The translations under genes and the position numbers were made by a program. Shown here in pieces: positions 18,236 to 63,550 of a stretch of DNA of 64,000 nt. The stretch's first letter is position 1; each line of letters begins with the position of its first letter. This DNA comes from Squalus acanthias (taxonomy: Eukaryota). The stretch lies in assembly GCA_030390025.1 (NCBI GenBank), contig CM059434.1, positions 104,780,001-104,844,000 on the forward strand. The letters are read 5' to 3'. Below the pieces are notes generated by a model that saw only the letters and a list, made by a program, of their open reading frames with translations, was not told the DNA's origin and did no database searches.

Positions 18236-18273
18236 TCACAAGCTTTCGGAGCGGCTGCTCCTTCGTCAGGTGA
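18236..18273 (-). ncRNA. Minimal type I hammerhead ribozyme (Penelope-associated), left arm
   Basis: Minus strand reads UCAC-CUGACGA-A-GGAGC(agcc)GCUCC-GAAA-GCUU-GUGA. Confidence 0.75.
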
Positions 18274-18836: not shown

Positions 18837-18874
18837 TCACCTGATGAAGGAGCAGCCGCTCCGAAAGCTTGTGA
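18837..18874 (+). ncRNA. Minimal type I hammerhead ribozyme (Penelope-associated), right arm
   Basis: UCAC-CUGAUGA-A-GGAGC(agcc)GCUCC-GAAA-GCUU-GUGA: stem I UCAC/GUGA, 5-bp stem II, palindromic AAGCUU in place of stem III. Confidence 0.75.
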
Positions 18875-19049
18875 TTTCAAATAAAACTGTTGGACTATAA
18901 CCTGGTGTTGTGCGACGTCAAACACACAAGGGTTCATAGTAAAAGCATATACAGTTTTGGTTCAACCAATGACTCAGTGGGTTTATCCTGTGAGTAACCA
19001 AGCCAAACAAATCAAAACGGTCCCATGGTCTATTCTGTGCTGATCATCA

Positions 19050-19440: not shown

Positions 19441-19479
19441 GTCGTTTTTTTTAGGGATGGAGGGTGAGGGATTGGGGAC

Positions 19480-21368: not shown

Positions 21369-22375
21369 TGAAAGTCAGCAGAAAAGTACTTCAGCACCTG
21401 TCACACCACTCCCTGAAGAATATTGAAAATTTAACCAACTACAGAAAGCACCCAAAACATGTAGAATTACAACACCAGCCAGAAGAAATCAATCAGCAAC
21501 TAACCTGTGAGTAGTTCATGATCCCTTTAACTAGCGCTGGTGGGGGGTCCTTCATGCCGTTTAATATCGTGTTCAGCTGTGCGAGGTTAAGGGCTGCAGC
21601 GTGGAGCTCCAAAATGGCAGCGCTGGCAACAAATCAGTGTTTCACGCTGTTTGATGTCATGATCTGCCTGTTCTGCATACTGCCGGTGGACGTTAGGTGT
21701 GTGCGCGCAAACACCTTCAGGAAGATGGCGTCCAGTGCACTTTCTGTCGGAAGTGTGCGCGCTCACCGCGTACGCCATTTTCAACACTTAAGGGGCCTTG
21801 AAGTGGCCACGAATCAGGCGCATCAGTGCCCAATTTTGTCCTCACTGGCTTCAGGGCAAAAGAGAATAAACTTAGAGAACAGAATAGATTTCCTCCTAAA
21901 CTCCAAATAATACAAAACCAAGAATAAAATGAAAAGATGTCTACCAATCTACTAACAAACTCGTAAGAAAAGTTCTCCGGGGGAAGTAACTCAGTAACAA
22001 TAAGGTCTCTCTCTTTCTCGAAAAACAGATGATATTTTACTTGCACTATACACTCTACACGTGCGTGTGTCTGCTTTACAGAATTACCAGCGTATGCCCA
22101 ATGTTTCCAATGTGGTGGTGTGCGCACTCTTGGGAAGCACTGCACACAAGCAAGTGGTTTTGCATCCTCTTAATGTGGTCTTCTTTGGTGTTTTGATTTT
22201 TGTTTCGCTGCCATTTTCAAGACAATGATCACAGTGTGTGTTTACAGGCCGCAAAAAAATATTTGTAAAGCAGAGGTGGTCACTCAGTGGGTGGCAACTT
22301 TAATTGTACCAACTTTTAAGAAATTTAAAGATACAATACCCTATCAATACTGTGCAAGAGACAAGAGTGACTCAA

Positions 22376-29255: not shown

Positions 29256-29713
29256 GCGAGGATCACAATATTGAATTATATAACAAGGGGATTGCTATTG
29301 TACATCTAGAATTTGGATAGCGAAAGTATACTCCTAATTGTGAGTGATACTGGTCCACCTATGGAAGAGACCAATGATGGAGGAGGTGGACCTGTGTGGG
29401 AGCGGCAGCGGGACCTGAGAGAAGGCGGAGCGGCCATAAAGGAGCACTGCAGAGGAGTGCTGCGAGTTGGGAAAGAGTCTGAGAGCGGGAGCAGTCAAAC
29501 AACAACAACTGCGAAACCGCTAAAGTGATGTCACAACCAGGGAAGGAGCTGATTGGTAAGTAGGACCTGGTGAATATTTCTACAGTCCGGTCGTTGAAGT
29601 AAAAGTAAGGTCTCTAGTTTAGAGTAAGTAGTGTTTAAAGTGAAGTAAGGTCCGTAGTGTATTTAATATTCTTTAATTTAAAGGAAGTAAAGGGAGTAAG
29701 TTAAGGTTAGGAC

Positions 29714-30663
29714 ATGGCAGGGCAGCTCGGCAGCGTGGAGTGCTCCTCCTGTGCTATGTGGGAAGTCAGGGACAATTTCAGTGTCCAGGGCGAACACATG
29801 TGCAGGAAGTGTCTCCAGCTGCAGCTACTCGAAATCTGCATTTCAGAGCTGGAGCTGTGGCTGGAGTCACTGTGGAGCATCCGCGAAGCTGAGATCTTCG
29901 TGGATAGCACGTTTAACGAGGTGGTCACACTGCAGGAAAAGAGTGCACAGGCAGACAGGGAATGGGTGACCGCCAGACAGAGTAAAAGAACTAGGAAGGT
30001 AGTGCAGGAGTCCCCTGGGTCCATCTTTCTCTCCAACAGATTTTCTGTTTTGGATACTGCTGGGGGAGATGGTTTCTCAGGGGAATGCAGCAAGAGCCAA
30101 GTCTGTGGCACTATGAGTGGCTCAGCTGCACGGGGGGGGAGGAAAAAGAGTGGGAGAGCAATAGTGATAGGGGATTCAATCGTAAGGGGAACAGATAGAC
30201 GTTTCTGTGGCCGCAGACGTGACTCGAGGATGGTATGTTGCCTCCCTGGTGCCAGGGTCAAGGATGTCACTGAACGGCTGCAGGGCATTCTGAAGGGAGA
30301 GGGCGAACAGTCAGAGGTTGTGGTTCACATTGGTACCAATGACATAGGTTAAAGAGGGATGAGGTCCTGCAACAAGAATTTAGGGAGCTAGGTAGCAGAT
30401 TAAAAAGCAGGACCTCAAAGGTTGTAATCTCTGGATTACTCTCGGTGCCACGTGCTAGTGAATATAGGAACAGGAGGATAGAGCAGATGAATGCGTGGCT
30501 AAAGAGTTGGTGCAGGAGGGAGGGCTTTAGTTTCCTGGATCACTGGGTCTGCTTCTGGGGAAGGTGGGACCTGTACAAGTCGGACGGGTTGCACCTGAAC
30601 CGGAACGGGACCAACATCCTTGGGGGGAGGTTTGCTAGTACTGTTGAGGGGGGTTTAAACTAA
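29714..30663 (+). pseudogene. CR1 ORF1 (zinc-finger/leucine zipper plus SGNH/GDSL esterase), frameshifted near 30350
   Basis: CSSCAMW..CRKC, heptad leucines, VIGDSIVR, HIGTND and DGLHL motifs across ORFs 29714-30352 and 30445-30663. Confidence 0.92.
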
Positions 30664-30782
30664 CTTGGCAGGGGGATGGGATACGGAGTGGAGCTATAGT
30701 AGGGGGTGATGCACAGCCAAATATAGAGGAAAAAACAAGTCAGCCTGGAAGGCAGAGCAAATCTGTAACAGCACAAGGGAGT

Positions 30783-33594
30783 ATGGCAAGGCTGGATGGC
30801 ATTTATTTTAATGCAAGGAGTCTTGCAAGTAAGGCAGATGAATTGAAGGTGTTGATGAACACTTGGGAGTATGATATTGTTGCTATCACAGAGACATGGT
30901 TGAGGGAGGGTCAGGACTGGCAGCTCAATATTCCGGGGTATAGAATCTTCAGGCGAGACAGAGGGGGGTGTAAAAGAGGAGCGGGTTGTCGCAATATTAA
31001 TCAAGGAGTCAATTACTGCTGTAAGGAGTGATGATATCTTAGCAAGTTCCTCTAATGAGGCCATATGGGTAGAACTTAAAAACGAAATGGGGGCAAGCAC
31101 TTTGCTGGGAGTGTACTATAGGCCCCCAAACAGTCAGGGGGAGATAGAGGAACAGATATGTAGGCAAATCTCAGAGAAGTGTAGAAATAATAGGGTAATA
31201 ATAGTAGGGGTTTTCAACTTCCGCAATATTAACTGGGATAGTCAGAGTGTGAAAGGCTTAGAGGGTGCGGAATTCTTAAAGTGCATCCAGGAGAGCTTTC
31301 TGAGCCAGCATGTAGAAAGTCCTACAAAAGAGGGGGCGGTACTGGACCTAATTCTAGGGAATGTAGCCAGGCAAGTGGTAGAAGTGTCAGTAGGAGAGCA
31401 TTTTGGTGACAGTGACCATAATTCGGTGAGATTTAAAGTAGTCATGGAAAAGGACAAAGCTGGACCGGAAATAAAGGTTCCAAATTGGGGGAAGGCCGAT
31501 TTGAATATGATAAGGCAGGATCTGGCCAAAGTGGATTGGGATAAGCTACTTGTAGGAAAATCCACATCAGAGCAATGGGAGTCTTTCAGAAAGGAAATAG
31601 AGAGAGTACAACGCCAACATGTTCCCGTAAAGGTTAAGGGTGGGACCAACAAGCCCAGGGAACCCTGGATGTCAAGGGATATACAAGAATGGATTAGGAA
31701 AAAAAGAGAGGCTTTTGGCAGATACAAATGACTAAAAACAGTGGAAGCCCTAGAGGAGTATAGAAAGTGCAGGGGGTACATAAAAAAGAAATTAGGAGAG
31801 CGAAGAGGGGGCATGAAAAAACACTGGCGGTCAAAATAAAGGAAAATCCCAAGGTGTTTTATAAGTATATTAAGGGCGAGAGGATAACCAGGGAAACAGT
31901 AGGGCCCATTAGGGACCAAAGTGGCAATCTGTGTGTAGAGCGGAAGATGTGGGTGAGGTTTTAAATGATTATTTGGCATCTGCGTTCACGATGGAGAAGG
32001 ACGATGTAGGCATAAAAATCAGGCAGGGGGATTGTGATATACTTGAACAAATTAGTATTGAGAGGGAGGAGGTACTAACGGTTTTAGCGAGCTTAAAAGT
32101 GGATAAATCCCCAGGCCCAGATGAGATGTATCCCAGGCTGATGTGTGAGGCAAGGGAGGAGATTGCAGGGGCTCTGACACAAATTTTCAGAACCTCTCTG
32201 GCCACAGGGGAGGTGCCAGAGGACTGGAGGACAGCTAACGTAGTACCATTATTCAAGAAGTGTAGTAGGGATAAACCAGGGAATTACAGGCCAGTGAGCC
32301 TAACATCAGTGGTAGGGAAATTATTGGAAAAAATTCTGAGGGACAGAATTAGTCTCCACTTGGAGAGGCAAGGATTAATCAAGGATAGTCAGCATGGCTT
32401 TGTCAGGGGGAGATCATGTCTAACCAATTTGATTGAATTTTTCGAGGGGGTGACTAGGTGTGTGGATGAGGGTAGTGCAGTTGATGTAGTCTACATGGAC
32501 TTCAGTAAGGCTTTTGACAAAGTCCCGCATGGGAGACTGGTCAAGAAGATAAGAGCCCATGGGATCCAGGGCAATTTGGCACATTGGATCCAAAATTGGC
32601 TTAGTGGCAGGAGGCAGAGGGTGATGGTCGAAGGTTGTTTTTGTGACTGGAAGCCTGTGTCCAGTGGCGTACCGCAGGGATCGGTGCTGATCCTTTGCTG
32701 TTTGTAGTGTACATTAATGATTTAGATATGAATGTAGGAGGTATGATCAGTAAGTTCGCAGATAACACGAAAATTGGTGGAGTGGTAAATAGCGAGGAGG
32801 GAAGCCTCAGGCTACAGGACGATATAGACGGGTTGGTCAGATGGGCAGAACAGTGGCAAATGGAATTTAACTCTGAAAAGTGTGAGGTGATGCATTTTGG
32901 GAAGTCTAACAAGGCAAGGGAATACACAATGAATGGTAGGATCCTAGGAAGGACAGAGGATCAGAGGGACCTTGGTGTGCATGTTCATAGATCCCTGAAG
33001 GCAGCAGGACAGCTAGATAAGGTGGTTAAAAAGGCATATGGGATACTTGACTTCATTAGCTGAGGCATAGAATATAAGAGCAGGGAGGTTATGATGGAGC
33101 TGTACAAAACGTTAGTTAGGCCACAGCTGGAATACTGTGTGCAGTTCTGGTCGCCACACTATTGGAAGGATGTGATTGCATTGGAGAGGGTGCTGAGGAG
33201 ATTCACCAGGATGTTACCTGGGCTGGAGCACTTCAGCTATGAAGAGAGACTGGACAGGCTGGGGTTGTTTTCCTTAGAGCAGAGAAGGCTGAGGGGGAAC
33301 CTGATTGAGGTGTACAAAATTATGTGGGGCATAAATAGGGTAGATAGAAAGGAACTTTTCCCCTTAGTAGAGGGGTCAATAACCAGGGGGCATAGTTTCA
33401 AGGTAAGGGGCAGGAGGTTTAGAGGGGATTTGAGGAAAAACTTTTTCACCCAGAGGGTGGTTGGAATATAGAACTCACTGCCTGAAAGGGTGGTAGAGGC
33501 AGGAACCCTCACAACATTCAAGAAGCATTTAGATGAGCACTTGAAACGCCATAGCATACAAGGCTACAGACCAAGTGCTGGAAAATGGGATTAG
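30783..33594 (+). pseudogene. CR1 ORF2 (AP endonuclease plus reverse transcriptase), multiple frameshifts and stops
   Basis: YFNARSL, AITETWL, YRPPN, SDHN, KSPGPD, NYRPVSLTS, DFSKAFDKVPH, GVPQGSVL; the catalytic FADD motif reads FADN; start position approximate. Confidence 0.95.
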
Positions 33595-33674: not shown

Positions 33675-34571
33675 GCGGGAAAAATTCAGTATCGCCCCGT
33701 TTGGGGCGCAATTATCGGCCGGGCGCAAAGTTTAGCGCCTGCCGCTAATTATCGCCTCCGACTGCAAACTTGACTTTTATCGCCCCTGGAGGTGATTGGA
33801 GCGCTAAATCAGGCGCTACACATCTGTCTTAAGGCGTAAAGCCTGAGGAGCGAGGCGCTAACTCAGAGCGCTGGCGAAGCTCATGTGATGTCAGTCAGCA
33901 ATGGAACACAGACACAATGGCGCCGGCCAGTTCTTAAAGGGGAGGGTTGATCGTTCTTTCCATCCACATCCTGCTCATTGCAGCCTTGAATCTCGGCCTG
34001 GAGAGACCTGTACATCAAATCTGCTGGAAAGAACAATGGAGAGAACCAGGGAAAGAGCTCAGAGTGCAGCCCCCATAGTCTCTTCTAAATCGATACAAGG
34101 AAGGGCAAATCAAAATGAACCTGCAAAGTGCTGCTTAGTACCCAAAACTCCTTCACACAGCGTTGAATCTCTCCAGAAGTCTCTCTCTCTCTCTCTCTCT
34201 CAGAATGCGTGGTTCAAAAATGTCACCAACAAAAAAAGGCAGGAAGCGGTCGCCTTTAAATAGCGCTCCCCCAGTCCCTTCCTGACTGCAAAACGCTCCC
34301 CTCAACCTGTCGTTGCTAGCGGCAGGCGGTAAGGCAGGGAGCGCCACTCAATATCCGCTCCGGGGCGCTACCGGGGCGTTGCGCACTCGACTGACGTCAC
34401 GATCTGCTGGCGCAGGAGAGCGTGGCGGTAGTGTTTAGCGCCGCCGCAAAATGTCTAGTTAATTTCGTGAGCGGCGCAAACATCGCCGCGCCCGGGCGCT
34501 AGTTGCTTTGCGCCCCATTAGCGCCCTCTTAAGGCGCTAACGGGAGGCGCAACCAACTGAATTTTTCCCCC
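33675..34571 (+). mobile_element. Non-autonomous Harbinger internal-deletion derivative related to 58547-62688
   Basis: TIRs GCGGGAAAAATTCAGT / ACTGAATTTTTCCCCC, TAT TSD, both ends homologous to the autonomous-type element. Confidence 0.93.
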
Positions 34572-34589
34572 TATGACTCTATGATGTAA

Positions 34590-35308
34590 GAGAATATTGG
34601 AGTACAAATACACAAATCACTAAAAGTTGTGCCACATAAGGCCATTAAAAATGCAAACCAAGCACTAGGGTTTATTTCTAGAGGGATAGAATTGAAAAGT
34701 AGGGAAGTTATGCTAAACCTGTATCGACCCTTGGTTAGACCACACTTGGAGTACTGCATGCAGTTCTGGTCGCCGTATTATAAAACGGATATAGAGGCAC
34801 TGGAGAGGGTGCAGAGAAGATTTACAAGAATGATACCAGAAATGCGAGGGTATACATATCAGGAAAGGATGAACAGGCTGGGTCTCTTTTCTCTTGAAAA
34901 AAGAAGGCTGAGGGGTGACCTAATAGAGGTCTATAAAATTATGAAAGCTTTTGATAGAGTGGATACAGAGAGAATGTTTCCACTTGTGGGGAAGAGCATA
35001 ACTAGAGGCCATCAATATAAGATAGTCACCAAGAAAGCCAATAGGGATTTCAGAAGAAACTTATTTACCCAAAGAGTGATGAGAATGTGGAACTCGCTAC
35101 CACAGGGAGTGGTTGAAGCGAATAGTATTGATGCATTTAAGGGGAGGCTAGACAAGCATGTGAGGGAGAAGGGAATAGAGGGTTATGCTGATAGATTTAG
35201 ATGAGGAAAGAAGGGAGGAAGCTCGAGTGGAGCATTAACACCGGCATGGACTGGTTGGGCCGAATGGTCTGTTTCTGTGCCGTATATCCTATGTAATCCT
35301 ATGTAATC
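34590..35308 (+). mobile_element. CR1 3' fragment (different subfamily)
   Basis: ORF 34629-35204 encodes the CR1 C-terminus (LVRPHLEYCMQFWSP); (ATCCTATGTA) tail. Confidence 0.93.
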
Positions 35309-37334: not shown

Positions 37335-38575
37335 GGGGGCGATTTTTCCCAGATATGTTAGGTATTAAAGAACCTCCGAGGTGGCCAAGATGGGGTCTTA
37401 AGCTGCAATGCCGGTTTAGTCCGCGTTTAGTGTAAAACACCACCTTGGTAAAGGAGTTGAAGCACACGCTAAGAACGGCCGCCCGGAGGGTCATTAAGGG
37501 GCTGATTGACAATTAAATTGCCTGCTGGCGCTCATTAAAGAGGCTGCACAGCATTTTGGTGGGCAGCGCTTTAATTAACGACCTCTCCTAACAGCGACCA
37601 GAAGTCGTTGGTGAGGATTGCGAGGGCTGCTTAAAGCCATGCTCAGCTTTCACTGTTCACTTGCTGATTGAGATGGACTGACTACACTGTGTTTGAAGAG
37701 GATTTTTGAGACACATCGGGAGACTTTCTGGGACACTTATTCAAGACTTCACCAACACTTTATCAACATTTTTCCCAGAAATTCTCTCAGGACATCACCT
37801 AAAAAGAGTGAGTGCTGTGCTACTGAACCTTATTGGAGACCTTATAGGAGTCACCAGGAGAATGGGAGTGCTTGGTCATGGGCATCTTGCTAGGGGTCCC
37901 CCTTGGTCTGCATGAGGAATGGGAGGAGGAGATGAGGCCGGGCAGAGCAGCACCAGCTGCTGCAGGAGAGAGGGACAGGAGGGCGAGGCGGGCTCTCAGC
38001 TAGAGGCCCAATCCACCCAGGGTTTTCAGAGAGCAATACTCCTACATTCACATGACCCAAGACCAGTGCATGAGGAGGCTGTGCTTTATCAAAAAAGTCA
38101 TCATAGAGATTTGTGGAACAAAGACTCAGACGTCGCAGCACAGCCAGGCTTGCATTGCCTGTGGCAGTCAAGGTCACAGTAGCACTTAATTTTTATGTTA
38201 CTGGAACCTTCCAGGCTGCCACAGGTGATATAAGTCACATGTTACAATCCTCTGTGTATTTCTGCATAAGGGAGGTTGCAGCGGCTCTATACGGTCTGAG
38301 GGACGACTATATATCATTCCGTATTGCCAGCAAAGACCAGAGGCAGACTTTCAGTGGAAGTGGGTGACTGGAGGCTACATCTACTGCTCCAAGAAATTTA
38401 CTTCTAATCAGCGCTTGAGTGCTAAAGTGTGCAGGTGTCTGTTTTAGTGCCTGCAGGCACATTTAAATCATGGTAATCATCAATTAGCCCCAAACTGCAT
38501 GCTAAATCCACACTTTCAAACAGGCACAGCACCCATTTAGCACCTGTTTTCACCCTTTCACCAAAATAACCCCCC
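37335..38575 (+). mobile_element. Decayed Harbinger element with 5' transposase remnant
   Basis: Remnant at 37862-38340: PPRVFREQYSYIHM..CMRRLCF, ALPVAVKVTVALNFYVTGTFQAATGDIS; imperfect GGGGG..TTTT ends. Confidence 0.8.
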
Positions 38576-38749
38576 ACCCCACTGCCTTCTTTACAGCACC
38601 TTCTATGTTATTCTGAGTGTTTAACTGCCTCCTAATTGATGTTCACAGCAAATTAAGGGGATTGGTACTTCTCTGGTTAGATGAACCTCAGGGATGTTTT
38701 TTGGCCCTATACACTCTTATGGTTCTATGCTTTTCATTGGCTGGATTTC

Positions 38750-40862
38750 TGTGTGAGATACTTGGACTCTGTAGCACCCATTTTTTAGGCACTATGCGGC
38801 CGCCTAACGCTCGAAAATGGGGTCCGAGATACGCGTGCACACTTCCGATGGGAAGTGCGCGGGACGCCATCTTGATAAAGGGGTTTGCGTGCGAGCACCT
38901 AACCACCGCCAGTAGCATGCAGAGCAGGCAGATTATGATGTCAATCAGTGTGCAATGCTGAATTGATGCCAGCGCTGCCATTTTTGAACTCCACACTCCA
39001 GCTGAACACGACAGTAAACGGAATGAAGGAACCCCCACCAGCGCTATTTAAAGGGATCATGAACTACTTATAGGTTCGTTGCTGGATTATTTCTTCTGGC
39101 TACTGGTACAATTGTACGCATTTTTGGAGCTTTCCTACACTTGGCCAAAATTTGAAGGGAGTGTTCTGGCTGGTGCTGAAATACTTTTCTGTTCATTTAA
39201 AAGCTTGTGCTGAAACAAGTTGCTTCTAGACAAGGGCGGCCTGGTAGGCCTTCCACTGGGAATTGAGCATGATAGGGAGGATGACAAGATGTCACACAGA
39301 ACAGGATAAGCTGCTAGAAGAGGGAGGAGGAGGAAGGGGAGAAGGGCTCTCATCAGGAGGCCTTATCCACCGATGGTCATTAGGGAGTAATTCTCTTACC
39401 TCAACTTCAGCGAGGACCAATGTATGAGACATCTTCACTTCACAAAAGAGGTCGTGACTGAAATCTGCCAGCTGCTGCAACCACAACTGCAACTCCTCAT
39501 CTGATTCCTCTGCAGCAGAACTAGTGTGCAATCTCGTCCTGGCTCCTGTGCACTTGTGCCCGGTGTCTCACCACGTGCAGATCTCTCCTCTATCCTAGCC
39601 TCTAAAATACGCACAGTGTCAGTCTCTGAGCTGGTGGCTGTGAGTGTAAGGTCAAGTGACGGTGTCTCTTCATTTTCACTGTCTTCTTCCTCTCCTCCTC
39701 TGACTGGGAAGGTTCCAGTTCTTGGGTATCTGAAATGAAAAAGGGACAAGTGTTGGGTTGTGGTGAGGAGAGAGGAGAAATGCGTGCTTGCACCATCTGC
39801 AGCTCGTGGCTCAGAAGAGATTGCATGATGAAGAAGAAGTGGGGTGTGAAAAGGAGGATTAGGTATGCAGATATGCTCATCATTGATCCCTTCAGCCCTG
39901 CCAGTGGCCACAGCCTCAATGATGCCCCTTCCCATGATGGCCACCACTGTGTTCCTCCATTGGGGGTTAAAACGTGCAGGCACGCTTGTCCTCTTCCAGT
40001 TCTTTGCTGCTGCCTCCTGTTATGCGCCACCTTCTCCTGCAAGAAAGATGGAAGTGTGTCAGTGAGTGTCCTGCAATATATTTGGGTGTTATGGCTGTCA
40101 TGGCTGAATAGCTGCCAGTGTGTGTGAGCTGTGAGTTGCAGGTGTGAGGCTTGCAACAGTGCTAAGTGTGTGAGGGTGAGGTAAAGCATATGAATTGAAG
40201 GGTTGAGTACTGATTGATAGAGATTGTTGGCATGTGGATGAGGGGAGTGTGGAGAATTAAGCAGTGGATGAGGCTAGTGGTGCAGTAGGATATACCATTT
40301 GAAGATGAACTCACTCACCTTAACAACTCGTGTCAGATCATTAAACTTCTTCCTGCACTGCATCCATGTCCTTGGAGCAACACTCTTGGCATTGACCTCT
40401 GCCGCTACTTCTTCCCACTGCCTCCTGAGCATCTGTCTGGAGAGCCTCCTGCCCCTCTGTGGATGCAGGATGTCTCTCCTTCTTTCCACCTCTTGCACCA
40501 AGACCTCCAGGGCATTGTCAGAAAACCTTGGTGCTCGCTCTCTCGCATGCCCAGCCATTCCTCAAATTATCACAGCCCAGATTCACTTTTCAAAAACCTC
40601 CCCACCACTTCTTGCAGCCACAATCCACCTCCCCTTTAAGAGGAGCAGGCTGATTTAACTAGCGATAGCCACTCGTGATATCGGGCCACCTGCTGATGCG
40701 TGCAGTCAATGAACAGCACGGGGAGTACTGGCTGCACGCAGCAATCAATTACAACAGCACTCAGCAATTTAACATGCTGCCTGCAATGCAATAAGCGGGC
40801 GCGGGTTTCTCACGTACCGTGATCCCCACGCCCGTTTTTGAGCGTTAGCCAATTTAACCCCC
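38750..40862. mobile_element. Harbinger element with internal deletion (5' transposase on +, Myb gene on -)
   Basis: 39230-39493 encodes GGLVGLPLGIEH..FSYLNFSEDQC..FTKEVVTEICQLLQPQL; right TIR CCAATTTAACCCCC at 40862; left end approximate. Confidence 0.85.
39495..40558 (-). pseudogene. Harbinger Myb/SANT-like gene, three exons (40558-40319, 40036 to about 39877, 39729 to truncation)
   Basis: RERAPRFSDNALEVLV..WEEVAAEVN..RTWMQCRKKFNDL then AAG|GTGAGT; exon 2 EKVAHNRRQQQRTG has a frameshift. Confidence 0.88.
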
Positions 40863-43029
40863 ATATAGTCCACATTTTAGCCCATAGCAAAATCATTAGT
40901 AAAGTATGCTTTGCTAATTTCAAAAACTGTTAGTAATCCACAGTTAACCCTCAGCAGCAATTTCTAGGCTGTTTTTACACAAGCATCCCTTAGCCCCCAG
41001 TCTGTGCTTTGTTTGCAATCCCAATAGCATTGTTGTGGCTGTGAAAGTGAAAATAAACACTCCTCAAACTGGACTTTGGTGTATTTGACATGTATAGAAA
41101 ACATTATATCCATTGCATTTTATTTGTCAGCTTCTAAATATTATCCAGTTAAGAGTCGGAGCCTGCTGTACGATCTTTCTTATCGCAAGTACACAGACCT
41201 TATCCTTTGCTTACTTCATGCTTGCAGTAGCCTTTCCTATTCTATTACACTGCACATCACCAAGACAACAAACATATCGCCAACCTGACTTTAATGCAGT
41301 TGGCAGACAGCCTACTGGTAGATGGAGGAACAAAAACAATTCAGTGTTCAAAGAGCAATGAAAAACCAAAGTCAATTGAATTACTTTTAATTTTTATTTT
41401 GTTTATTTGATATTTTAATACTGTGTTTCTTTTGGAGATGTTGCTGTAAATATTTCACCTGGATGTGGATTGTGTTCATTGTAACTGAATGTATTCAAAG
41501 TGACTAAGAAATTCTAAGAACATGACCTGAAATTCGATGCATTGACTCCGGTTCCATTTGAGTAATGTGATATTGTTGTGAGTGGTGGAAATTTTGGAAT
41601 TAATCAGCTGTCATAGCTTGGGTGCCTTAATATGGGTACTGAAATGGAACCCAAGTGGCACAATACCCATACTTAATCAAGTCAGATGAGTTCCAGCTCG
41701 AAACAAGGATACTGGCACTAAACTGTATTCATTAAAGGAAATGCCAAAGGAAAAAATGAGTGCAGTCTGAAATACATTCAATGGCTTATAACTCTACCTC
41801 TAAAGAATAAAATGCTGTGTGCTTTTGGCATCAAATAGAGGAAAGGGTAGGTGGAAAACAGATTGAGTGAAATGAAATTTAAAAAGGCACAAATAACTGA
41901 ACTAACCCAATATTTGTAACTTCTCTACCGATGAATAAGAAATTGTTCACGTAATCTAATAGTTTCATTTTGGAATCATATAGAAAATATCCCCTTCCAT
42001 GGTTTCCCAAAGTGCATGTGCACTTAAGATTATTTTTACGTGTAAATATTTGTGAAATATTTCTGCATCGCTTGTGTACAAACTTTAGACTTCAGTTCCT
42101 CCTAGTCTAGGCTGTGCACATATACAACACGCATTACTGATAGGGCAAAATTTGGCACAGGGAATAAACTTTTGCATATTTAAACACACATGTGCATATT
42201 CAACATTGCTCTTGAACAAGCTAAAAGACAGATTTAAGAATTAGGTTGAAGTGCTTAGGTGAATTTCTTACTTTCTTCAGTAGCATTTGAAATTGTCTAT
42301 TTTCACTTACGTTGCAAAGCATTGAACCAACAAAGGTGTCGGATGTTACAGTTCCTGGTGTGACAACAATTTACAGCATTAGTCGTTAATTAGTGTTTAC
42401 GATACTGTATGCGTGACATCTGTGTCAATAAACTCTGCTGCTAAATTTGCATCTACCACAATAAAATTGCATCAAAAGATTATTTGAACATTTGAGTAAG
42501 CAAACATAATGTGGAAACTGACGTCAGTACATTAAGGAGTCATTGATCATTTTGCCTTCATCAGGTCAAAGGTATCGACAACATCATGTCATAATGTGCA
42601 GAGAGGCAGTAAAGTATGAACTCAATTCATCACATTTCAAAGTCAAGGACACTGCTTTCCCTGGAAATGTAAAACAGTTACTGAAATGAACATACATTTT
42701 TAGCAGCAAAAAGAACAAAAAAGATCTGTAATTAAGGATAAGGGATGAAGTAAATGAAAGGCTGTTGTAAAACTATCAAAATCTAGGAAATCAATAAATG
42801 AGGCAATGTATTTACTATAGTTCTATATAATACTGAGACCATAAGTAATTTAAAATGATATAATTATCAATTATTTGCTCAAACTATTCAATTCATGATT
42901 TATTCAATCATTTTACATGACTTCCTATCTCATGATACAAAAGGGAAAACATGAATAACAACTCACACTTACATAGCATCTGTTAAGTTAAAGAACTGCA
43001 AGGTACTTAAATAGAATGAGATGGAAATT

Positions 43030-43795
43030 ACATAGAAACATAGAAGATAGGAGCAGGTGTAGGCCATTCAGCCCCTCGAGCTTGCTCCGCCATTTAATGA
43101 GATCATGGCTGATCATGCAAATTCAGTACCCTGTCCCTGCTTTCTCCCCATATCCCTTGATCCCTTTAGCCTTAAGAAATATATCTAACTCCTTCTTGAA
43201 TATATTTAATGAATTGGCCTCAACTGCCTTTTGTGGTAGAGAATTCCACAGGTTCACCACTCTCTGGGTGAAGAAATTCCTCCTCATCTCAGTCCTAAAT
43301 GGCTTACCCCTTATCCTTAGACTGTGACCCCTGGTTCTGGACTCCCCCACCATCGGGAACATCCTTCCTGCATCCAGTCTGTCTAGTCCTGTTAGAATTT
43401 TATAAGTTTCAATGAGATCCCTTCTCATTCTTCTAAACTCCAGCGAATATAAGCCCAATCGACCCAATCTCTCCTCATACGTCATTCCTGCCATCCCAGG
43501 TATCAGTCTGGTGAATCTTCGCTGCACTCCCTCCATGGCAAGAACATCCTTCCTCAGATAAGGCGACCAAAACTGCACACGATACTCAAGGTGTGGTCTC
43601 ACCAAGGCCCTGTACAACTGTAGCAAGACATCGTTGCTCCTGTACTCGATTGCCTTCTTAACCGCCTGCTGCACCTGCATGCTTACCTTCAGCGACTGGT
43701 GTACAAGGACACCCAGGTCTCGTTGCACTTCCCCTTTTCCCAATCTATTGCCGTTCAGATAATAATCTGCCTTCCTGTTTTTGCCACCAAATTGC
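43030..43795 (-). mobile_element. CR1 3' fragment, same subfamily as 1501-2040
   Basis: ORF 43123-43821 has a nearly identical C-terminus to ORF 1565-1936; small internal deletion (KKA|IEYRS). Confidence 0.95.
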
Positions 43796-44089
43796 ACCAT
43801 AGAAACAGGCCATTTGGTCAAAGCAGCCGTGTTGGTGTTTATCCTCTCGTAGCCCTAATCCCAGGTGCCCACCCTATTCCCACATCCCTTTATCCCCCTT
43901 TCTCTGAACCACCTATTTAAACTATTCTTAAAAGTTGATGTGATCGTGCTTCAATCTAAGCTGTGTAGTGCACAGTGTAAATCACAGCCTCATGATCCTC
44001 TGTGTAAAAAGGTTTCTCCTGCACTCTGTCCTCAGTCTCTCTACCTCTACGTCTTCACAAATAGGCATAATGAAAATAGAGGCCGAGTC

Positions 44090-56127: not shown

Positions 56128-56860
56128 TTCTTCTTCTTCTTAGGCAGTCCCTCGGAACCGAGGATGACTTGCTTCCACACTAAAAATGAGTTCTCAGGTG
56201 ACTGATGAGTCCAATGCGGGACCTACAGTCTCTGTCACAGGTGGGGCAGACGGTGCTTGAAGGGGCGGGTGGGTGGGGTGCTTGGGTTGACGTGCGCTCC
56301 TTCCGCTGTTTGCGCTTGGCTTCCGCTTGCTCCCGGCGAAGAGACTTGAGGTGTTCGGCGCCTTCCCAGATGCTTCTCCTCCACTTTGTGCAGTCTTGGG
56401 CCTGGGATTCCCAGGTGTCGGTGGGGATGTTGCACTTTTTCAAGGAGGCTTTGAGGGTGTCCTTGAAGCATTTCCTCTGCCCACCTGGGGCCCCCTTGCT
56501 GTGTCGGAGCTCCGAGTAGAGCGCTTGTTTTGGGAGTCTCGTATCGGGCATGCGGACGATGTGGCCCGTCCATCGGAGCTGATCGAGCGTGGTCAAAGCT
56601 TCGATGCTGGGGATGTTGGCCTGAGCGAGAACACTGACGTTGGTGCGCCTATCCTGCCAATGGATTTGCAGGATCTTGCGGAGGCAGCATTGGTGGTACC
56701 TCTACAGTGCTTTGAGGTGCCTGCTGTACATGGTCCTTGTCTCTGAAGCATACAGCAGGGCGGGTATCACTACTGCTCTGTAGACCATGAGCTTGGTGCT
56801 GGGTTTGAGGTCCTGGTCTTCAAACACTCTCTTCCTCAGGCGACTGAAGGCTGCACTGCA
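56128..56860 (-). mobile_element. RTE-clade LINE 3' fragment
   Basis: LRWTGHIVRMPDTRLPKQALYSEL..GGQRKCFKDTLK..CPTC..RIGLISHLRTH; (GAA)n tail on the minus strand. Confidence 0.92.
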
Positions 56861-57640: not shown

Positions 57641-58905
57641 TTGTACTTATTAGCCTCGTAATCGTCTTCCATTACCTATGGGCAGCTCTCTTTGGGGCAC
57701 TGTAGCACTCTGTGTTAAAAAATATCAATCTCCTTTCTCTTCCCTTACTTCTCACAGCAGTATTTGAAGCGCAACATCAGGAAACCTAAAGGCTATCTGC
57801 CCTCTTGCTGATCTGGCAGCCATTCTGTCATGTCAGACCTTCCTTTCCTGATCATGAATGGTAATGATAATGCCTATCCCTTTAAGCTGTTGCAGCCTTT
57901 AAATCCTGCAGCAGTGTGCTATGTCCCACCCCCTAACTGGGACAGCTCATAATTAGAGATATTTCTAACACCAGGAGCATGCCCAAAATATTATATTGAG
58001 GCTGGACGTGGCAATTCCAGCAGGGTCAGTGCCCGTCACAATGGGCAATACGAACCACGACTGTCTCACTTCCGGTTGGGCTCGCACTTGATCAGAAAAT
58101 CCAGCTTCCATGCCTTGGTTCATGTATGAAGATAGGCCACTTGGGCACTCGTGTACCTCAGCATGGAGTCAGCACCTTCAAGAGAGAAGAAGGGGAGGGG
58201 AGTAAACTTAGGGAAAAGAAGTAGAAAAGAATAAATAAAATACATATAAATAAGTAAAAAGAGCTGGTAATTGAGACAGGATTTCAATGCCACTCTCTTT
58301 CTTACTTGGGAATTCAGTGTTCCAGTACTGTGCTGACCAGGCTGTTCCCTACTTAGTAGGTTTCACTTGTAACTGTTAAATAAGAGGCAAGGGGCTTTAC
58401 ATATTCTTTAACCACTAAGTGTTAAAGTTGTAGCATTCAGTATGCCAGAATTTAGAATTCCTGCAGTTAGTAGCATTGGTCCAAATATTTTCTTCAGTTA
58501 ACTGGCAGCAATGTTATATTTTTTCTGTACTCGGATTGAATTCTAAGGGGGAAAAATTAGGTTGCACCCCATTTGGGGCGCAAATATCGTCTGGACGCAA
58601 ATATTAGCGCCTGGCGCTAATTATCGCCACTGACTGGAAACTTCACTTTTACCGCCCCAGGAGGTGAGTGGAGCGCTAAATCAGGCGCTGCACACCTGTC
58701 TTAAGGCGCAAAGGCCGAGCACTGAGGCGCTAACTCAGAGCGCGAGCGCAGCGCAGGTGCTGCCAGTTAGCGAGGGAACACAGACACACTGGCGCCGGCC
58801 AGTTCTTAAAGCGGGGGGGGCCAACTTGCTCCCCAGCCACACCCTGCTCATTGCAGCCTTGAATCTCGGCCTGGAGAGACCTGTGAATCCATTTTGCTGC
58901 CAAGG

Positions 58906-60725
58906 ATGGAGAGGGTGAGAGAACGAGCTCATCGCTTCACCGAGCGGGCCTTGGATGCTCTGGTTGGCGCGGTGGAGCGCAGAAGATGTATACTCTTCCC
59001 TGAGAGTGGCAGGAGGCCTTTGCCACGCGAGTACAGAAGAGTGTGGAGGGAGGTGGCTCAGAGCGTCTCCTCCAGGAGCATGGTGCTCAGGACCCATGTT
59101 CAATGCCGCAAAAAGTTCAACGACCTCACTCGGGTCGTCAGGGTGAGTGGCTTTTTCTCAATACCTCTCCATCCCTCCATCTCAACCTCACTCTATGGCC
59201 AGAGGGTCTTAAAACCCCAATGCACAACACTCATCCAACACCTATGGCCCTTTCATGAAACACACACACACATTCCACACTTTGCATACAGTAAGGGCTA
59301 TTCACCTATGGGAGGCACATCAGGCAAGACCATGGCTGCATATAGTAAGGGCTATTCACCTATGGGAGGCACATCAGGCAAGACCATGGCTGTATATTTA
59401 CTCAAATGCTGTCCTTTTTCTTACAGGCCAAGCTGGCGCATAATCGGAGACAGCAGCAACGGACAGGTGGAGGGCGGCCTCAGCTGCAACCCCTCAGCGA
59501 TCTTGAGGAGCGCGTCCACAGGATTGTGGCAAGCCGGGTGATCGGTCCCGTCGCCACTGGAGACGCCGACCCCGTTCTGGACAGCAATGGTAAGGTCATC
59601 ACCTTTTTGTCCTCTGTCCTTCCACTTGTCCCACACAACACCAGCCTTTGACACTTTCAATCCAACTTGCTAACTCGCTGCACTTATTCCTCCCTTACTG
59701 CCACCCTGTCCTCACGCTAAAGCCACTCTTGTACCTCCCTGCTTTCAGATGGTGATTAACCAGCTGAGGAGACGGGCCCTAAAGCTGCCACTGGGAGTGA
59801 AGCTGCAGCCGAGGAGGAAGAGGAAGTCGGAGCATCAGTGCCACCCTCTCCCGAGGAAGCCCATGCCCACACTGGGAACACGCCTTCCCTGGAGGGAAGC
59901 AGGGGGGAAGGGTCTGATGAGGATGAAGCTCCAGGACCCAGCGGGCTGCAGCAACGCCATGGGGGTAGGGAAGAACGGGGGCCTTCTCCCCAGAGGGAGA
60001 GTATGCCAGAGACTCCTACTGCAATGGACGCAGAGGAGGAGCGGCTGATCGCAGAAATGAACACCCAGGCGGTGGGCATGCACACTGAGCTCATGGGTGC
60101 AGTGGGAAGGGTGCCCGAATGCATTGAGTCACTGGCAAGGAGTGTGGAGCACTTCGCTGTAGCACAGGCGGATGCCACACTAACGCTTAGTGCTGCAATT
60201 CAGTCACTGGCTGCCGTGATCCCATCTCTGACTGCTCTCATGCAGACTCAGATTGAGGCCACGCGAGCACAGACTGCTGCCAACCTCGATGGTTCGTTCA
60301 CATGTCCCCGGGGCTCTCACCGCGCCGCAGCAGGCCAGCAATCTGTTCTCCAGCAGATTGCTCCGGATGCTGAAGTGCTGCCCCGTGGGAGTGCCAGTGT
60401 GTCGGGCGAGCAGGGAGTTGCTGTCCTCTCTCACGATGACAGCATTCCTGCTGCCAACACTGTCACTTCTCCACTGCACTTGCCACCGCCTGTAGGACAG
60501 ACTGCTGCCGCCCATGCAGAGTTGGTGCAGTCTGCAGCCGTGCCCTCCAGGCCCAGAACTGGTCGAGGCCGTCCTTCAGGGGCATCTGCAGTGTCAGGGT
60601 CTGACGATCAGCAGCCTTCCACCAGCCTTGCTGCAGCCACTGAGGTCCCATTACGGAGGAGCAGTAGGGTTAGAAGGGGGGAAGTGCGCAAGGGAAGGAG
60701 ATCATCCTCGAAGGGCAAAAAGTAG
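58906..60725 (+). CDS. Harbinger Myb/SANT-like DNA-binding protein; predicted exons 58906-59142, 59427-59589 and 59749 (or 59764)-60725
   Basis: RFTERALDALV..WREVAQSVS..RTHVQCRKKFNDL; GT-AG sites with compatible phases 0 and 1; basic NLS-like C-terminus; in-frame TAA at 59757 if the first acceptor is used. Confidence 0.85.
59283..59390. repeat. 54-bp tandem duplication in Myb intron 1
   Basis: Two copies of TGCATA(C/T)AGTAAGGGCTATTCACCTATGGGAGGCACATCAGGCAAGACCATGGC. Confidence 0.95.
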
Positions 60726-60944
60726 GAGGTGTGACAAAATGCTGGTCATTTTTTTATTAAAGGCTGAGGTTCATGGTCCAACTTTTGTTTAGTGTTTTGG
60801 ACATTATCTCCAGGTTGTGAGAACATGTTATTGACTGTTTTTTTGTGTTTATTTCTATGAGTTTGTCATGAGGAATTGACACACACAGAGTTTGTAAAAT
60901 AAATAAGTTTCTGTATTCAAAATATACATGGTTGGTGTTTGGAA

Positions 60945-62177
60945 TTATTGGTGCCTTGGCCGGCTTAGGGGTTGCGTGCTGGGTTCATTGATGTTGTTAG
61001 CAATGGCAGAAGCCATTTCCACAGCAGGGGCTATCAGCCGTTGACGGACGGCCCTTGCAGTTTCACCATTGTGGGCCGCCCTCCCGCCTTGGTGCTGCTG
61101 ATGATCATCCTCCTCGTCCTCTTCCTCCTCTTCCTCCTCCTCCTCTGGTGGTGCTCCAAGGCCTGGTGGCATTGGCTGGGTCCTGACGATTGCCATGTTA
61201 TGCAACATGCAGCACACAACTACGAAGTTGGATACTCGCTCAGGCGAGTACTGCAGGGCTCCTCTAGAATGGTCGAGACAGCGGAACCGTTGCTTCAGCA
61301 CGCCGATTGTGCGCTCAATGATGTTCCTGGTAGCTTGATGGCTCTCATTGTACCGCAGCTCAGCAGGGGTGTTGGGCGTACGGAGCGGTGTCATCAGCCA
61401 GGTGCTCAATGGATACCCCTTGTCCCCGAGAAGCCAACCAACTGGCTGATGCGGTGCCTCGAAAAGTTCTGCCACAGTAGTCTGGCGCAGGATGAAAGCA
61501 TCGTGGCAGCTGCCAGGATAGTGGGCATTGACAGCGAGTATCAGCTGTCTGTGGTCACAGACCAACTGAACATTCAAGGAATGGAACCCCTTTCTGTTCC
61601 GGAAATCCTCGGCATTCTCATGTGGAGCACGCAAAGCCACATGCGTGCAGTCAATGGCGCCCTGCACCATGGGGAAGCCCGCTATCCTCGCAAAGCCCAG
61701 AGCGCGGTCACGCTGCTTGCCTGGGGTCATGGGGAAAGAGATGAACTCTCGTCTCCTTTTAAAGAGGGCATTTGTGACCTGCCGGATGCAGCAATGCACC
61801 GCGAACTGGGAGATATTGGCGAGGTCCCCAGCAGCAGCTTGAAATGAGCCAGTAGCATAGAAGTTGAGAGCCACTGTGACCTTCACTGCCACCGACAGAG
61901 ACGTCCTGGACCTCAGTTGAGGCTGCAGATCTGGCTGCAGCAGGTGGCAGAGCTCAGTGACCACCTCCTTGCTGAATCGCAGCCTTCGCAAACACAGCTC
62001 CTCAGACATATGAATGTAGGAGAGCTGTTCATGATATACCCTGGGAGGGTAAGCTCTCCTGTACAGACGCCTATTGGCCCTCCTCCGTCTGGCCATCATT
62101 GCCACTCTCTCTCTGCGTCTCTGTGTCCTCCGATTCAGCTGGAGCAGGACGACGCCCCCAATCAGTGCAGCCCCCAT
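60945..62177 (-). CDS. Harbinger (HARBI1-family, DDE_Tnp_4) transposase, uninterrupted, about 410 aa
   Basis: From ATG 62177 (MGAALIG): VALNFYATGSFQ, GAIDCTHV, NRKGFHSLNVQLVCD, YPGSCHDAFI, LLGDKGYP, RNIIERTIGVLKQRFRCL, CCMLHN. Confidence 0.95.
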   Translation of the reverse strand: MGAALIGGVVLLQLNRRTQRRRERVAMMARRRRANRRLYRRAYPPRVYHEQLSYIHMSEELCLRRLRFSKEVVTELCHLLQPDLQPQLRSRTSLSVAVKVTVALNFYATGSFQAAAGDLANISQFAVHCCIRQVTNALFKRRREFISFPMTPGKQRDRALGFARIAGFPMVQGAIDCTHVALRAPHENAEDFRNRKGFHSLNVQLVCDHRQLILAVNAHYPGSCHDAFILRQTTVAELFEAPHQPVGWLLGDKGYPLSTWLMTPLRTPNTPAELRYNESHQATRNIIERTIGVLKQRFRCLDHSRGALQYSPERVSNFVVVCCMLHNMAIVRTQPMPPGLGAPPEEEEEEEEEDEEDDHQQHQGGRAAHNGETARAVRQRLIAPAVEMASAIANNINEPSTQPLSRPRHQ

Positions 62178-62815
62178 AGTCTCTTTGCAAGCAAAGTAAT
62201 GAAGGACAGCAACCAAAGTACTAGCGAAGTTAGGATCAGTAGGCAAAACTACCTCACAAAGCGTTGAGTCAATGCAGAAGTCTCTCTTTCTCTCTCTCCG
62301 AATCTCTCTCTCTCTCTCAGAACGAGTGGTGCATAAATGTCAACCACAGAAAAAGACAGGAAGAGGCCCCCTTTAAGTAGCGCCCCCCCCAGCCCCACAG
62401 CGATTGATAGCGTTCCAGTCTTCCGGTCGTTGGATGCGCCAGGCGGTAAGGCAGGGGGCGCCACTCAATTTCCGCTCCGGGGCACCACAAGGGCGTTGCA
62501 CCATGGAATGACGTCACAATCTGCGCGCGCAGGTGGTCGCAGCGGTAAAGTTTAGCGCCGCCGCACAATGTCTAGTTAAGTTCCCGAGCAGCGCAAACAT
62601 CGCTGCGCCCGGGCGTTAGCGGCTTTGCGCCCCATTAGCGCCCTCTTAAGGCGCTAACGGGAGGCGCAACCAACTGAATTTTTACCCCTAAATGTTTTAG
62701 TGTTATTAATTTGGACAGATGCTATTTTAACCGGACTGTGGGCACATCACAGAATTACCCCTTTCCTGCCTACGAAAGTCTCAATTATGACTGACAAGTA
62801 CCCACCACATATAAT

Positions 62816-63550
62816 GGGGGGAAAATTGGGTGCTGCCCATTTTGGGGCACTAACGTCGTCAGGGCGCTAATTTTAGCACCCTGAAAAAGTTAGCGCCCCT
62901 CCGCCATAAATTCAGTCGTAGCACCCCAAGCAGGAGGTGGGGCGCTACTGGAATCACTCCACCCCCTGCTTGGGGCGCTACTACTGAATATCACGGTGCT
63001 ACGTGCCGCTGCGCCACGTGCGTCGGCACGTAGCACCGCGTCATTGCAGGCCTCCTCCCCTGATTAAAGGGGAGGGGCCTAGTGCTGCGCGCACCGGGGC
63101 CCCACTGGACCACCGGGGAGCGGGTGCCGTGAAAACAGCTCGGCACTCAAGAGGAGTGCCGGGCTGAACGATCGCGGCCGGCACCCCGCATAGAAATGTT
63201 AAAGGGGGCAGGTGCTGACAGTCAGCCAAAATAAAAATGGCCCCCCGACACCAGCCCTTTAAGTAGCGTCGCCACTGCTGCAAAAACGCCCCCTGATCCT
63301 ATTGGACCATATCGTCCAGCGATAGGTCAGGGGGCGCAAGGGAAGTTGGCGGCCGGGGCGCAAGCGGGGTGCTGTGCACGGCGATGACGTCATTGCCGGT
63401 GGCGCAGCGCCGCGGGGCGCTACCGGCTACCGCCACCGCTAACCTCCCGTTGAATTTCGCAGGAAGCGTTAGCGGCGCTGCACCCAGGCGCTAGGGGATT
63501 TGCGCCCCCGGGATACTAACGAGAGTTGCAAACCAACTCAATTTTTCCCC
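62816..63550. mobile_element. Harbinger-type MITE
   Basis: TIRs GGGGGGAAAATTG / CAATTTTTCCCC, AAT flanks, GGCGCTA-rich subterminal repeats as in the adjacent element. Confidence 0.88.

Follow-up and report, generated by a model that had tools for sequence, protein, structure and literature searches.

A full-length, probably non-autonomous two-gene PIF/Harbinger transposon copy in the genome of the shark Squalus acanthias

Both proteins are required for Harbinger transposition, as had been held in the first-pass annotation of this locus (PMC2836001, PMC9710019). Zebrafish Harbinger3_DR was rebuilt from a consensus, is active in human cells and has a 15-bp palindromic target (PMC2836001, PMC9710019, PMC3016246, PMC3158080). 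In the plant HDP1/HDP2 pair, the C-terminal region of the Myb partner is needed for binding, and the domesticated HDP1 is without terminal inverted repeats (TIRs) and target-site duplications (TSDs) (PMC5339849). Rice Ping/Pong, with proven activity, use two proteins, a TAA duplication and 15-bp TIRs opening with a run of G, and Tourist-like MITEs such as mPing are moved in trans (PMC2836001, PMC9921582). Harbinger-Snek of sea kraits, of horizontal origin, is expressed and occupies 8–12% of the genome, with 269 intact copies in Laticauda colubrina beside solo-ORF and short non-autonomous variants (PMC8437027). A recent burst or expression has been reported for the Harbingers of newt (Pleurodeles; PMC5741667) and coelacanth (PMC9179366). 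Of the cartilaginous fishes, the elephant shark was found to lack Harbinger in a 2022 survey, which proposed others for testing (PMC9179366); for the whale shark and the grey reef shark, its presence is mentioned in a single sentence of the respective paper.

The element found in the 64,000 nucleotides from S. acanthias (the window) is an ordinary new member of the well-known vertebrate two-gene Harbinger type. Its features are as follows.

58547-62688: whole PIF/Harbinger element, 4,142 bp, TAA-flanked, with two genes
58544..58546, no strand: left TSD, TAA, read from the sequence
58547..58558, plus strand: left TIR, 12 bp, 11 of 12 bases matching the right TIR
58559..58905, plus strand: left subterminal region, CpG-rich (CpG observed/expected 0.70), six copies of GCGC(A/T)AA; presumed promoter/5′ UTR of the Myb gene
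58906..59142, plus strand: Myb/SANT exon 1, 79 aa, DNA-binding domain (PF13873, E 2.2e-09)
59143..59426, plus strand: Myb intron 1, 284 bp, GT..AG ends
59427..59589, plus strand: Myb exon 2, 163 nt, alignable to two relatives (P0125, P0124) and to the second Myb gene of the window
59590..59748, plus strand: Myb intron 2, 159 bp, GT..AG, ending at the strongest acceptor
59749..60725, plus strand: Myb exon 3, with acidic linker, helical region and basic C-terminal tail; natural stop TAG at 60723-60725
59757..59759, plus strand: premature in-frame TAA, codon 137, read with the acceptor at 59748 and bypassed by the AG at 59762-59763
60726..60944, no strand: AT-rich gap of 219 bp between the convergent stops, AATAAA on both strands; presumably overlapping 3′ UTRs
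60945..62177, minus strand: intronless DDE transposase, 410 aa, ATG at 62177, TAA at 60947-60945; the last 28 residues leave the family ending
62178..62676, minus strand: right subterminal region, CpG-rich (CpG observed/expected 0.94), five copies of GCGC(A/T)AA; presumed promoter/5′ UTR of the transposase gene
62677..62688, minus strand: right TIR, 12 bp; its position 5 is T, against G in both the left TIR and the right-hand TIR of the MITE at 33675
62689..62691, no strand: right TSD, TAA, read from the sequence
33675..34571, plus strand: MITE, 897 bp, TAT/TAT duplication, both ends and both start codons kept
62816..63550, plus strand: MITE, 735 bp, target duplication ambiguous; TIRs similar, rest distinct

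With Harbinger3_DR the element shares a vertebrate DDE transposase, a Myb-like protein and non-autonomous derivatives; it differs from that rebuilt, active system in being a single natural copy with a TAA target and a probably truncated Myb protein, the two being set apart by description and not by sequence. Harbinger3_DR has a repeated subterminal motif of 9 bp, for which GCGC(A/T)AA is the candidate counterpart in the element. Like Harbinger-Snek, the element appears to be a young native vertebrate two-gene Harbinger, but one lesioned copy that groups with elasmobranch sequences stands against many intact copies, and the novelty implied for a near-native vertebrate Harbinger is accordingly low. 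Rice Ping/Pong resemble it in their two proteins, TAA duplication, short G-initial TIRs and associated MITEs and differ in being active plant elements; kinship of the transposase to plant elements is distant (Plant_tran, E 3.2e-11). The newt and coelacanth Harbingers are vertebrate as well, but have sarcopterygian hosts and a documented genome-wide expansion (PMC5741667, PMC9179366).

The ends of the element could be read directly, and the TSDs, TIRs and CpG-rich ends named in the first-pass annotation were all found. The 12-bp TIRs together with the 3-bp TAA duplication are as expected of the PIF/Harbinger superfamily, in which TAA/TTA is typical, although the usual TIR length is given as 25–50 bp (PMC9179366) and the shark TIRs are nearer to the 15 bp of Ping/Pong. 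Over the first 18 bases 15 are paired, and the sole mismatch within 12 bp lies at right-end position 5, where the adjoining bases are identical in the alignment with the sister MITE at 33675. In rice Pong, one TIR mismatch need not stop movement (PMC9921582). The CpG observed/expected ratio was 0.70 in the left 359 bp and 0.94 in the right 511 bp, compared to 0.42 in the window. GCGC(A/T)AA occurred six times in the left 254 bp (shuffle mean 0.25, maximum 3 in 300 shuffles) and five times in the right 259 bp (shuffle mean 0.32), counts that are circular in that the motif was chosen from these ends; it was absent from the 3,629 interior bases. These copies are candidate binding sites of the Myb protein. 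The gap between the stop codons, previously put at 220 bp, measured 219 bp and did contain AATAAA on both strands, once on the plus strand (60898) and twice on the minus strand (60753, 60848). Since the same arrangement arose in 813 of 20,000 base shuffles (216 of the 219 gap bases; P 0.04), it is weak evidence by itself and was dropped as a strong argument. Rfam gave no match in the window.

The transposase ORF has no internal stop and contains the GAID, GDKGY and IER motifs, in agreement with the earlier description of an uninterrupted protein of about 410 aa. It matched Pfam DDE_Tnp_4 (PF13359) with an E value of 4.8e-41, as expected of a Harbinger/HARBI1-type DDE transposase. It has D176 (61652-50), D226, D252 (61424-22) and E288 (61316-14), and we take D176, D252 and E288 to be the catalytic triad. 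Ninety-one columns are conserved across 80% or more of 120 relatives; the core keeps 90 of them, and in departures at conserved columns it tied for the lowest among the 88 sequences covering them. The predicted structure is a confident RNase-H-like fold (pLDDT 88.6), the last helix of which runs on to residue 396. A sequence search of the PDB gave nothing meaningful, and in a fold search the top match, a piggyBac transposase at E 3e-3, fell short of the E 0.001 cut-off; neither returned a solved Harbinger transposase structure.

The C-terminus had been named as a possible deletion fusion, and it does depart from the family: the ending LIxxxF-stop is missing and 28 extra residues follow. The terminal L-I helix is aligned in 54 relatives, of which 43 have F or Y 3–4 residues past it and 45 end within 9 residues; the element has neither the phenylalanine nor the early stop. 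No xRFx-stop ending was recoverable from the other two frames of the 3′ end. The closest transposase, P0001, likewise ends without the terminal Phe, and the long tail could therefore be a family trait. The transposase core looks catalytically whole, but the conserved last turn appears to be lost.

A total of 420 transposase relatives were collected, nearly all of those among the matches listed being named HARBI1-like. The closest of those listed come from sharks and rays, Pristiophorus japonicus and Heptranchias perlo among them, and are annotated as "putative nuclease HARBI1"; the top three share 61–71% identity, the best (71%) being from Pristiophorus. No listed match reaches 90%, and the element's family is therefore absent among the matches listed. 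These HARBI1-annotated proteins have the same motifs, but at least one of D, D and E is lost in 58 of the 111 relatives covering the triad (all three are retained in only 53), whereas the element keeps all three. A quick tree of 47 of 120 relatives and two window sequences places the element among elasmobranch sequences and names no sister; it groups with 14 Pristiophorus sequences (SH-aLRT 93). Several shark and ray relatives form short-branch cross-species pairs that would resemble domesticated genes. Together with the very highly conserved core, such pairs could suggest that the locus is a host gene pair of the HARBI1/NAIF1 kind maintained by selection for a cellular role. We regard this as the least probable account: the element lies with the Pristiophorus group and not in a short-branch pair, no cross-species orthologue is present among the matches listed, the triad is kept, TIRs and TSDs are present, unlike in HDP1 (PMC5339849), and the Myb stop argues against selection.

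The second gene encodes the Myb/SANT protein expected of PIF/Harbinger, exon 1 scoring 37.6 bits against Myb_DNA-bind_5 (PF13873; cut-off 21.7). Relatives were taken from a full HMMER search (72 matches); a word-index search with exon 1 found 1 of 193. Exon 3 alone had no homologue at E 0.01 among 8,000 candidates, and all ESM Atlas scores for its helical region were under 0.9. P0125 aligned over the whole protein (38% identity over 493 columns, E 7e-88), and past the TAA the reading frame still aligned with it as far as the C-terminal LRRS motif. The convergent spliced gene reported earlier was thus recovered, with three exons and GT..AG introns, but the in-frame TAA had been overlooked. With this stop, the altered transposase ending and the right-TIR mismatch, the description "structurally complete" fails.

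The consequence of the TAA depends on the acceptor of exon 3. The acceptor at 59748 has a pyrimidine fraction of 0.85, the top of 21 AGs scored in 59600-59900, and gives a product of 136 aa, compared to about 458 without the TAA. The AG at 59762-59763, 15 nt downstream, opens a 453-aa protein that lacks only five residues of the poorly conserved acidic linker. In BLAST against P0125 the two readings scored almost alike (267 vs 264 bits), and therefore protein alignment alone does not decide the acceptor. In the window's second Myb gene the corresponding junction, identical in position and phase, is TTTCAG|AT and reads D-T-Q-E without a stop. P0125, P0124 and P0122 read D-D-Q-P or D-T-Q-E-P where the element has D-G-D-stop-P, although a clear DDQ/TQE motif is absent in 7 of 10 or 11 aligned relatives. 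The most likely Myb product, judging from the pyrimidine tract and these junctions, is the 136-aa protein with the early stop.

If splicing used 59763 often enough, and if the longer transposase tail were harmless, the copy would be autonomous, and its essentially perfect, well-folded transposase core and its CpG-rich ends with many GCGC(A/T)AA copies would suit that account. We consider it unlikely, given that this AG has a pyrimidine fraction of only 0.50 and lies behind a stronger one, that the junction of the second Myb gene corresponds to the upstream AG, that the terminal Phe is missing, that the TIRs carry a mismatch, and that the 64-kb window holds no near-identical second copy. The full-length Myb gene is closed with the best-supported acceptor and open only via the weaker one.

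The TAA sits exactly between the two in-frame acceptors, in the last exon, and the 136-aa product retains the whole Myb domain. It might thus be a family-wide splice switch, by which the upstream acceptor would yield a repressor acting on GCGC(A/T)AA and the downstream one the 453-aa helper. The P-element repressor isoform is a parallel for such a short repressor, and an mRNA with its stop in the last exon is expected to escape junction-dependent decay, as the short Myb mRNA therefore would. If true, this would be a living shark Harbinger family with splice-based self-regulation, which our literature searches on Harbingers, run without naming it, did not return. We hold it to be very improbable: relatives read Q or E at the junction, where the second Myb gene is stop-free, one substitution suffices for a TAA, and in-frame AGs are common in the purine-rich exon 3, 9 of the 18 scored downstream of 59748 opening frames of more than 400 aa. 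Just as poor a prospect is an assembly error or a single allele at an otherwise intact locus. Each change could be a single event, and both ORFs are open elsewhere, but there are three separate departures (stop, tail and TIR), and ordinary decay, with numerous stops, is seen in other copies within the window.

The locus is best explained, and with fair assurance, as a full-length elasmobranch PIF/Harbinger copy, a cut-and-paste transposon that would have landed at a TAA site and then gathered a few lesions, and that is probably non-autonomous. The Myb protein of Harbinger3_DR reportedly binds the transposase through its C-terminal domain, in work attributed to Sinzelle et al. from 2008. In a working family, by analogy with Harbinger3_DR and Ping/Pong, the Myb/SANT protein would bind the repeated subterminal motifs, its C-terminal region would bind the transposase and bring it into the nucleus, and the DDE transposase would cut at the TIRs and insert with a 3-bp duplication. 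Normal splicing of the present copy would leave the DNA-binding domain and remove about 320 residues, among them the basic tail and, by the same analogy, the region that binds the transposase. The most that such a copy could do is provide transposase, or serve as a substrate mobilized in trans by an intact sister. Self-driven transposition is unsupported, since Harbinger movement needs both proteins (PMC2836001) and the Myb protein most likely ends at 136 aa.

The age of the copy was approached by a neutral simulation scoring the joint outcome of an open transposase, no conserved change and one Myb lesion. Indels were set to 0.1 times the substitution rate, and the choice of the copy for its open ORF was left out of account. 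The probability of this outcome was about 0.10 at 0.2% divergence, 0.07 at 0.5%, 0.014–0.018 at 1% and 0.001 or less at 2%, which suggests that the copy lies about 0.2–1% from its master and is young in sequence. Compared to the MITE at 33675, 11 of 54 CpG sites are lost, which would point nearer to 2% decay, though divergence of the sister family is included. At 7e-10 mutations per base per generation, a rate from a different shark (PMC10587355), 0.2–1% corresponds to about 3–14 million generations; "recently active" therefore holds as to slight decay and not as to elapsed time.

The locus is of modest significance. It supplies, for an elasmobranch Harbinger, the gene structure, the ends and a candidate binding motif; present activity is not demonstrated and no concept is changed. 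No paper describing a full-length shark Harbinger was found in a search that left most subscription papers and Repbase/Dfam outside, and the element may already be on record. Lying within about 1% of the master, the copy would lend itself readily to reconstruction of a consensus, and cell assays would thereby gain a second vertebrate Harbinger.

Mobilization of both neighbouring MITEs had been proposed, and this is plausible for the one at 33675. It aligns with the element at 83% over 383 columns and 82% over 506 columns, shares its TIRs and carries 4 + 5 copies of GCGC(A/T)AA at its ends, as would an internal-deletion, non-autonomous derivative of a sister family and a possible substrate in trans. 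For the MITE at 62816, which is weakly related, mobilization is poorly supported: it aligns only over its terminal 64 + 74 bases, at about 80%, and has 2 + 1 copies of the motif. Myb intron 1 of the element contains a 54-bp tandem duplication (59283-59390) with one mismatch.

The main element is a two-gene PIF/Harbinger copy with the following features.

58547-62688, 4,142 bp: main Harbinger element, flanked by two TAA triplets
ATG 62177 to TAA 60947-60945, minus strand: intronless transposase ORF of 410 aa with GAID, GDKGY and IER motifs
ATG 58906, plus strand: three-exon Myb/SANT gene, with the Myb/SANT domain in exon 1, above the Pfam cut-off

The terminal inverted repeats (TIRs) share 11 of their 12 bases (15 of 18 over a longer stretch); the exception is the fifth base of the right TIR, a T. 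The CpG observed/expected ratio is 0.70 and 0.94 at the two ends versus 0.42 window-wide. The convergent stop codons are separated by 219 bp carrying AATAAA on each strand, a pattern also found in 813 of 20,000 shuffles (216 of the 219 gap bases shuffled); taken alone, it is weak evidence. The combination of target-site duplication, TIRs and two family genes is far beyond chance. The element shows each of the four structural hallmarks of the PIF/Harbinger superfamily. The structural completeness claimed in the first-pass annotation holds for the duplications, TIRs, CpG-rich ends and presence of both genes; the Myb reading frame most likely falls short of that of an autonomous copy, and the transposase tail may or may not.

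The transposase matched Pfam DDE_Tnp_4 (E value, 4.8e-41). There are 91 alignment columns conserved in 80% or more of the 120 listed relatives; the main-element protein keeps 90 of them, which ties for best among the 88 sequences covering those columns. D176, D252 and E288 are all present, as is D226; the D,D,E triad is retained in only 53 of the 111 relatives that cover it. AlphaFold, given 71 aligned rows, predicted an RNase-H-like core with confidence (pLDDT 88.6), and no solved Harbinger transposase structure was found in the PDB by sequence or by fold. The single missing column is the terminal Phe. The final L-I helix is alignable in 54 relatives of the 71-row alignment: F/Y stands 3–4 residues beyond it in 43, and 45 end within 9 residues of it; the main-element protein continues for 28. 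Loss of the final codons and stop in a small deletion would produce such an extended tail and is its probable origin. Such a C-terminal deletion fusion, which the earlier annotation had itself raised against its reading, is favored by the absence of the terminal Phe and early stop, but P0001, the nearest transposase relative, likewise lacks the Phe.

Exon 2 of the Myb gene ends at 59589 in phase 1. When the 21 AGs in 59600–59900 were ranked by pyrimidine tract, the acceptor at 59748 came first (0.85), and splicing to it reads D-G-D-stop, giving a 136-aa product terminated by TAA 59757–59759. A second, older Harbinger Myb gene (minus strand, about 40560–39700) has TTTCAG|AT at the equivalent junction and reads D-T-Q-E, and the nearest full-length Myb relatives read D-D-Q-P (P0125) and D-T-Q-E-P (P0124 and P0122); the junction alignment is not clear in more distant relatives. 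These two independent lines both point to 59748 as the real intron-2 acceptor. The TAA looks like one nonsense change, because the following 321 codons stay open and align to the end of P0125 (38%; E value, 7e-88). Intron 1 contains a 54-bp tandem duplication (59283–59390, one mismatch), a marker to distinguish sister copies. The helical C-terminal region of exon 3 (about 60130–60290) falls short of its counterparts in P0124, P0125 and P0131 by ~20–45 residues, a figure that varies with the alignment; the difference could be either a family trait or an in-frame deletion.

The 136-aa product would retain DNA binding and would lose the putative C-terminal transposase-binding region and basic tail; the main copy is therefore probably non-autonomous. 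The C-terminal part of the Harbinger3_DR Myb protein is needed for transposase binding. The same part of the Myb partner is required for binding in plant HDP1/HDP2 (PMC5339849). In Harbinger3_DR and Ping/Pong, the analogues for this reading, transposition needs both proteins: subterminal sites are bound by the Myb protein, which also carries the transposase to the nucleus (PMC2836001, PMC9710019 and PMC3158080). Autonomy through an alternative AG 15 nt downstream (59763) is unlikely: this site opens a 453-aa protein, and the two splice readings score nearly equally against P0125 (267 vs 264 bits), but its pyrimidine fraction is 0.50 compared with 0.85 at 59748, and the homologous junction supports 59748. 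Two further readings are improbable to the same degree: one is a conserved splice switch that makes a repressor, the other an assembly error.

Shark or ray names are carried by 111 of the best 120 of 420 transposase relatives; the best match among those listed was from Pristiophorus japonicus (71% identity), and no member of the element's own family was among the listed matches. In a quick tree of 47 of the 120 listed relatives, the transposase grouped with 14 Pristiophorus sequences (SH-aLRT 93), nested in a 27-row elasmobranch clade (support 99). Based on these relatives and this placement, the element most likely belongs to an elasmobranch lineage. Short-branch cross-species pairs among the shark and ray relatives look like domesticated genes, but none adjoins the main-element transposase in the quick tree, and its domestication as host genes is very improbable.

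Two short non-autonomous elements (MITEs) had been proposed as mobilizable by the main element's family.

33675-34571, 897 bp: MITE 33675, with a TAT/TAT duplication rather than TAA/TTA
62816-63550: MITE 62816

MITE 33675 is 83% and 82% identical to the main-element ends and keeps both start codons. Its transversions exceed transitions (91 vs 66), which indicates, at the sequence level, descent from a sister family rather than the element's own. The commonest heptamer of the main-element ends, GCGC(A/T)AA, occurs there in 6 + 5 copies, in none across the 3,629-bp interior, in 4 + 5 copies in MITE 33675 (shuffle means, about 0.3) and in 2 + 1 in MITE 62816. Movement of MITE 33675 in trans is plausible, through an intact family member. 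MITE 62816 aligns with the main element only over its terminal 64 and 74 bases (about 80%), and the case for its mobilization by this family is weak. MITE 33675 is embedded in a short tandem tail that has a LINE-like piece on either side, and MITE 62816 holds two hairpin-type inverted repeats (62910–62989, 31-nt arms; 62987–63045, 22-nt arms).

In neutral-decay simulations (1,500 runs per setting; indels at 0.1 of substitutions), the joint pattern of open transposase, no conserved-site change and one Myb lesion was likeliest at 0.2–0.5% divergence, a figure biased low because the copy was chosen for its open ORF; its probability was 0.014–0.018 at 1% and ≤0.001 at 2%. The main element has lost 11 of 54 CpG sites relative to MITE 33675 (6 of 49 in reverse), which would put the upper figure near 2%, sister-family divergence included. 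If bases mutate as in the epaulette shark, at 7e-10 per base per generation (PMC10587355), 0.2–1% corresponds to about 3–14 million generations. Among shark transposons the copy counts as young. Present activity does not follow from that youth, and "recently active" holds only in the sense of little sequence decay.

The supposed novelty of a near-native vertebrate Harbinger is anticipated in print: Laticauda colubrina has 269 intact copies of a native, young Harbinger (PMC8437027), and Pleurodeles has seen a recent burst accompanied by expression (PMC5741667). A survey of elephant shark did not detect Harbingers (PMC9179366), and they are among the repeats listed for whale shark and grey reef shark; PMC9392472, PMC3016246 and PMC9921582 were also part of the comparison. 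No published description of a full-length shark Harbinger was found in an open-access library. The value of the main copy lies in guiding the reconstruction of a consensus; it should not be taken for an intact active element.

The window is rich in DNA of Harbinger origin. An older decayed transposase of another family (19476–20371, minus strand; 59–63% aa to the main one) has several stops, a frameshift, a truncated 3' end and a CpG observed/expected ratio of 0.31, and another Harbinger end region occurs at 21379–21782 and 38813–39191 (75% alike). Nested older remains span about 37340–40865.

38004-38343 and 39349-39468, plus strand: transposase 5' fragments in the nested remains
about 40560-39700, minus strand: spliced Myb gene in the nested remains, whose intron-2 acceptor is the control for the main element
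9485-9631, minus strand: small transposase fragment
29711-32707, 34590-35204, 43123-43854 and 56180-56701: LINE-like ORFs, inspected by eye

The LINE-like ORFs are presumably CR1/L2- and RTE-type fragments. A near-perfect palindrome of about 729 bp (18191–18919; ~360-bp arms differing at one base, short irregular center), one end of which may resemble a common shark repeat, has three possible origins: inverted duplication in the very recent past, a fold-back element, or an artefact of assembly.
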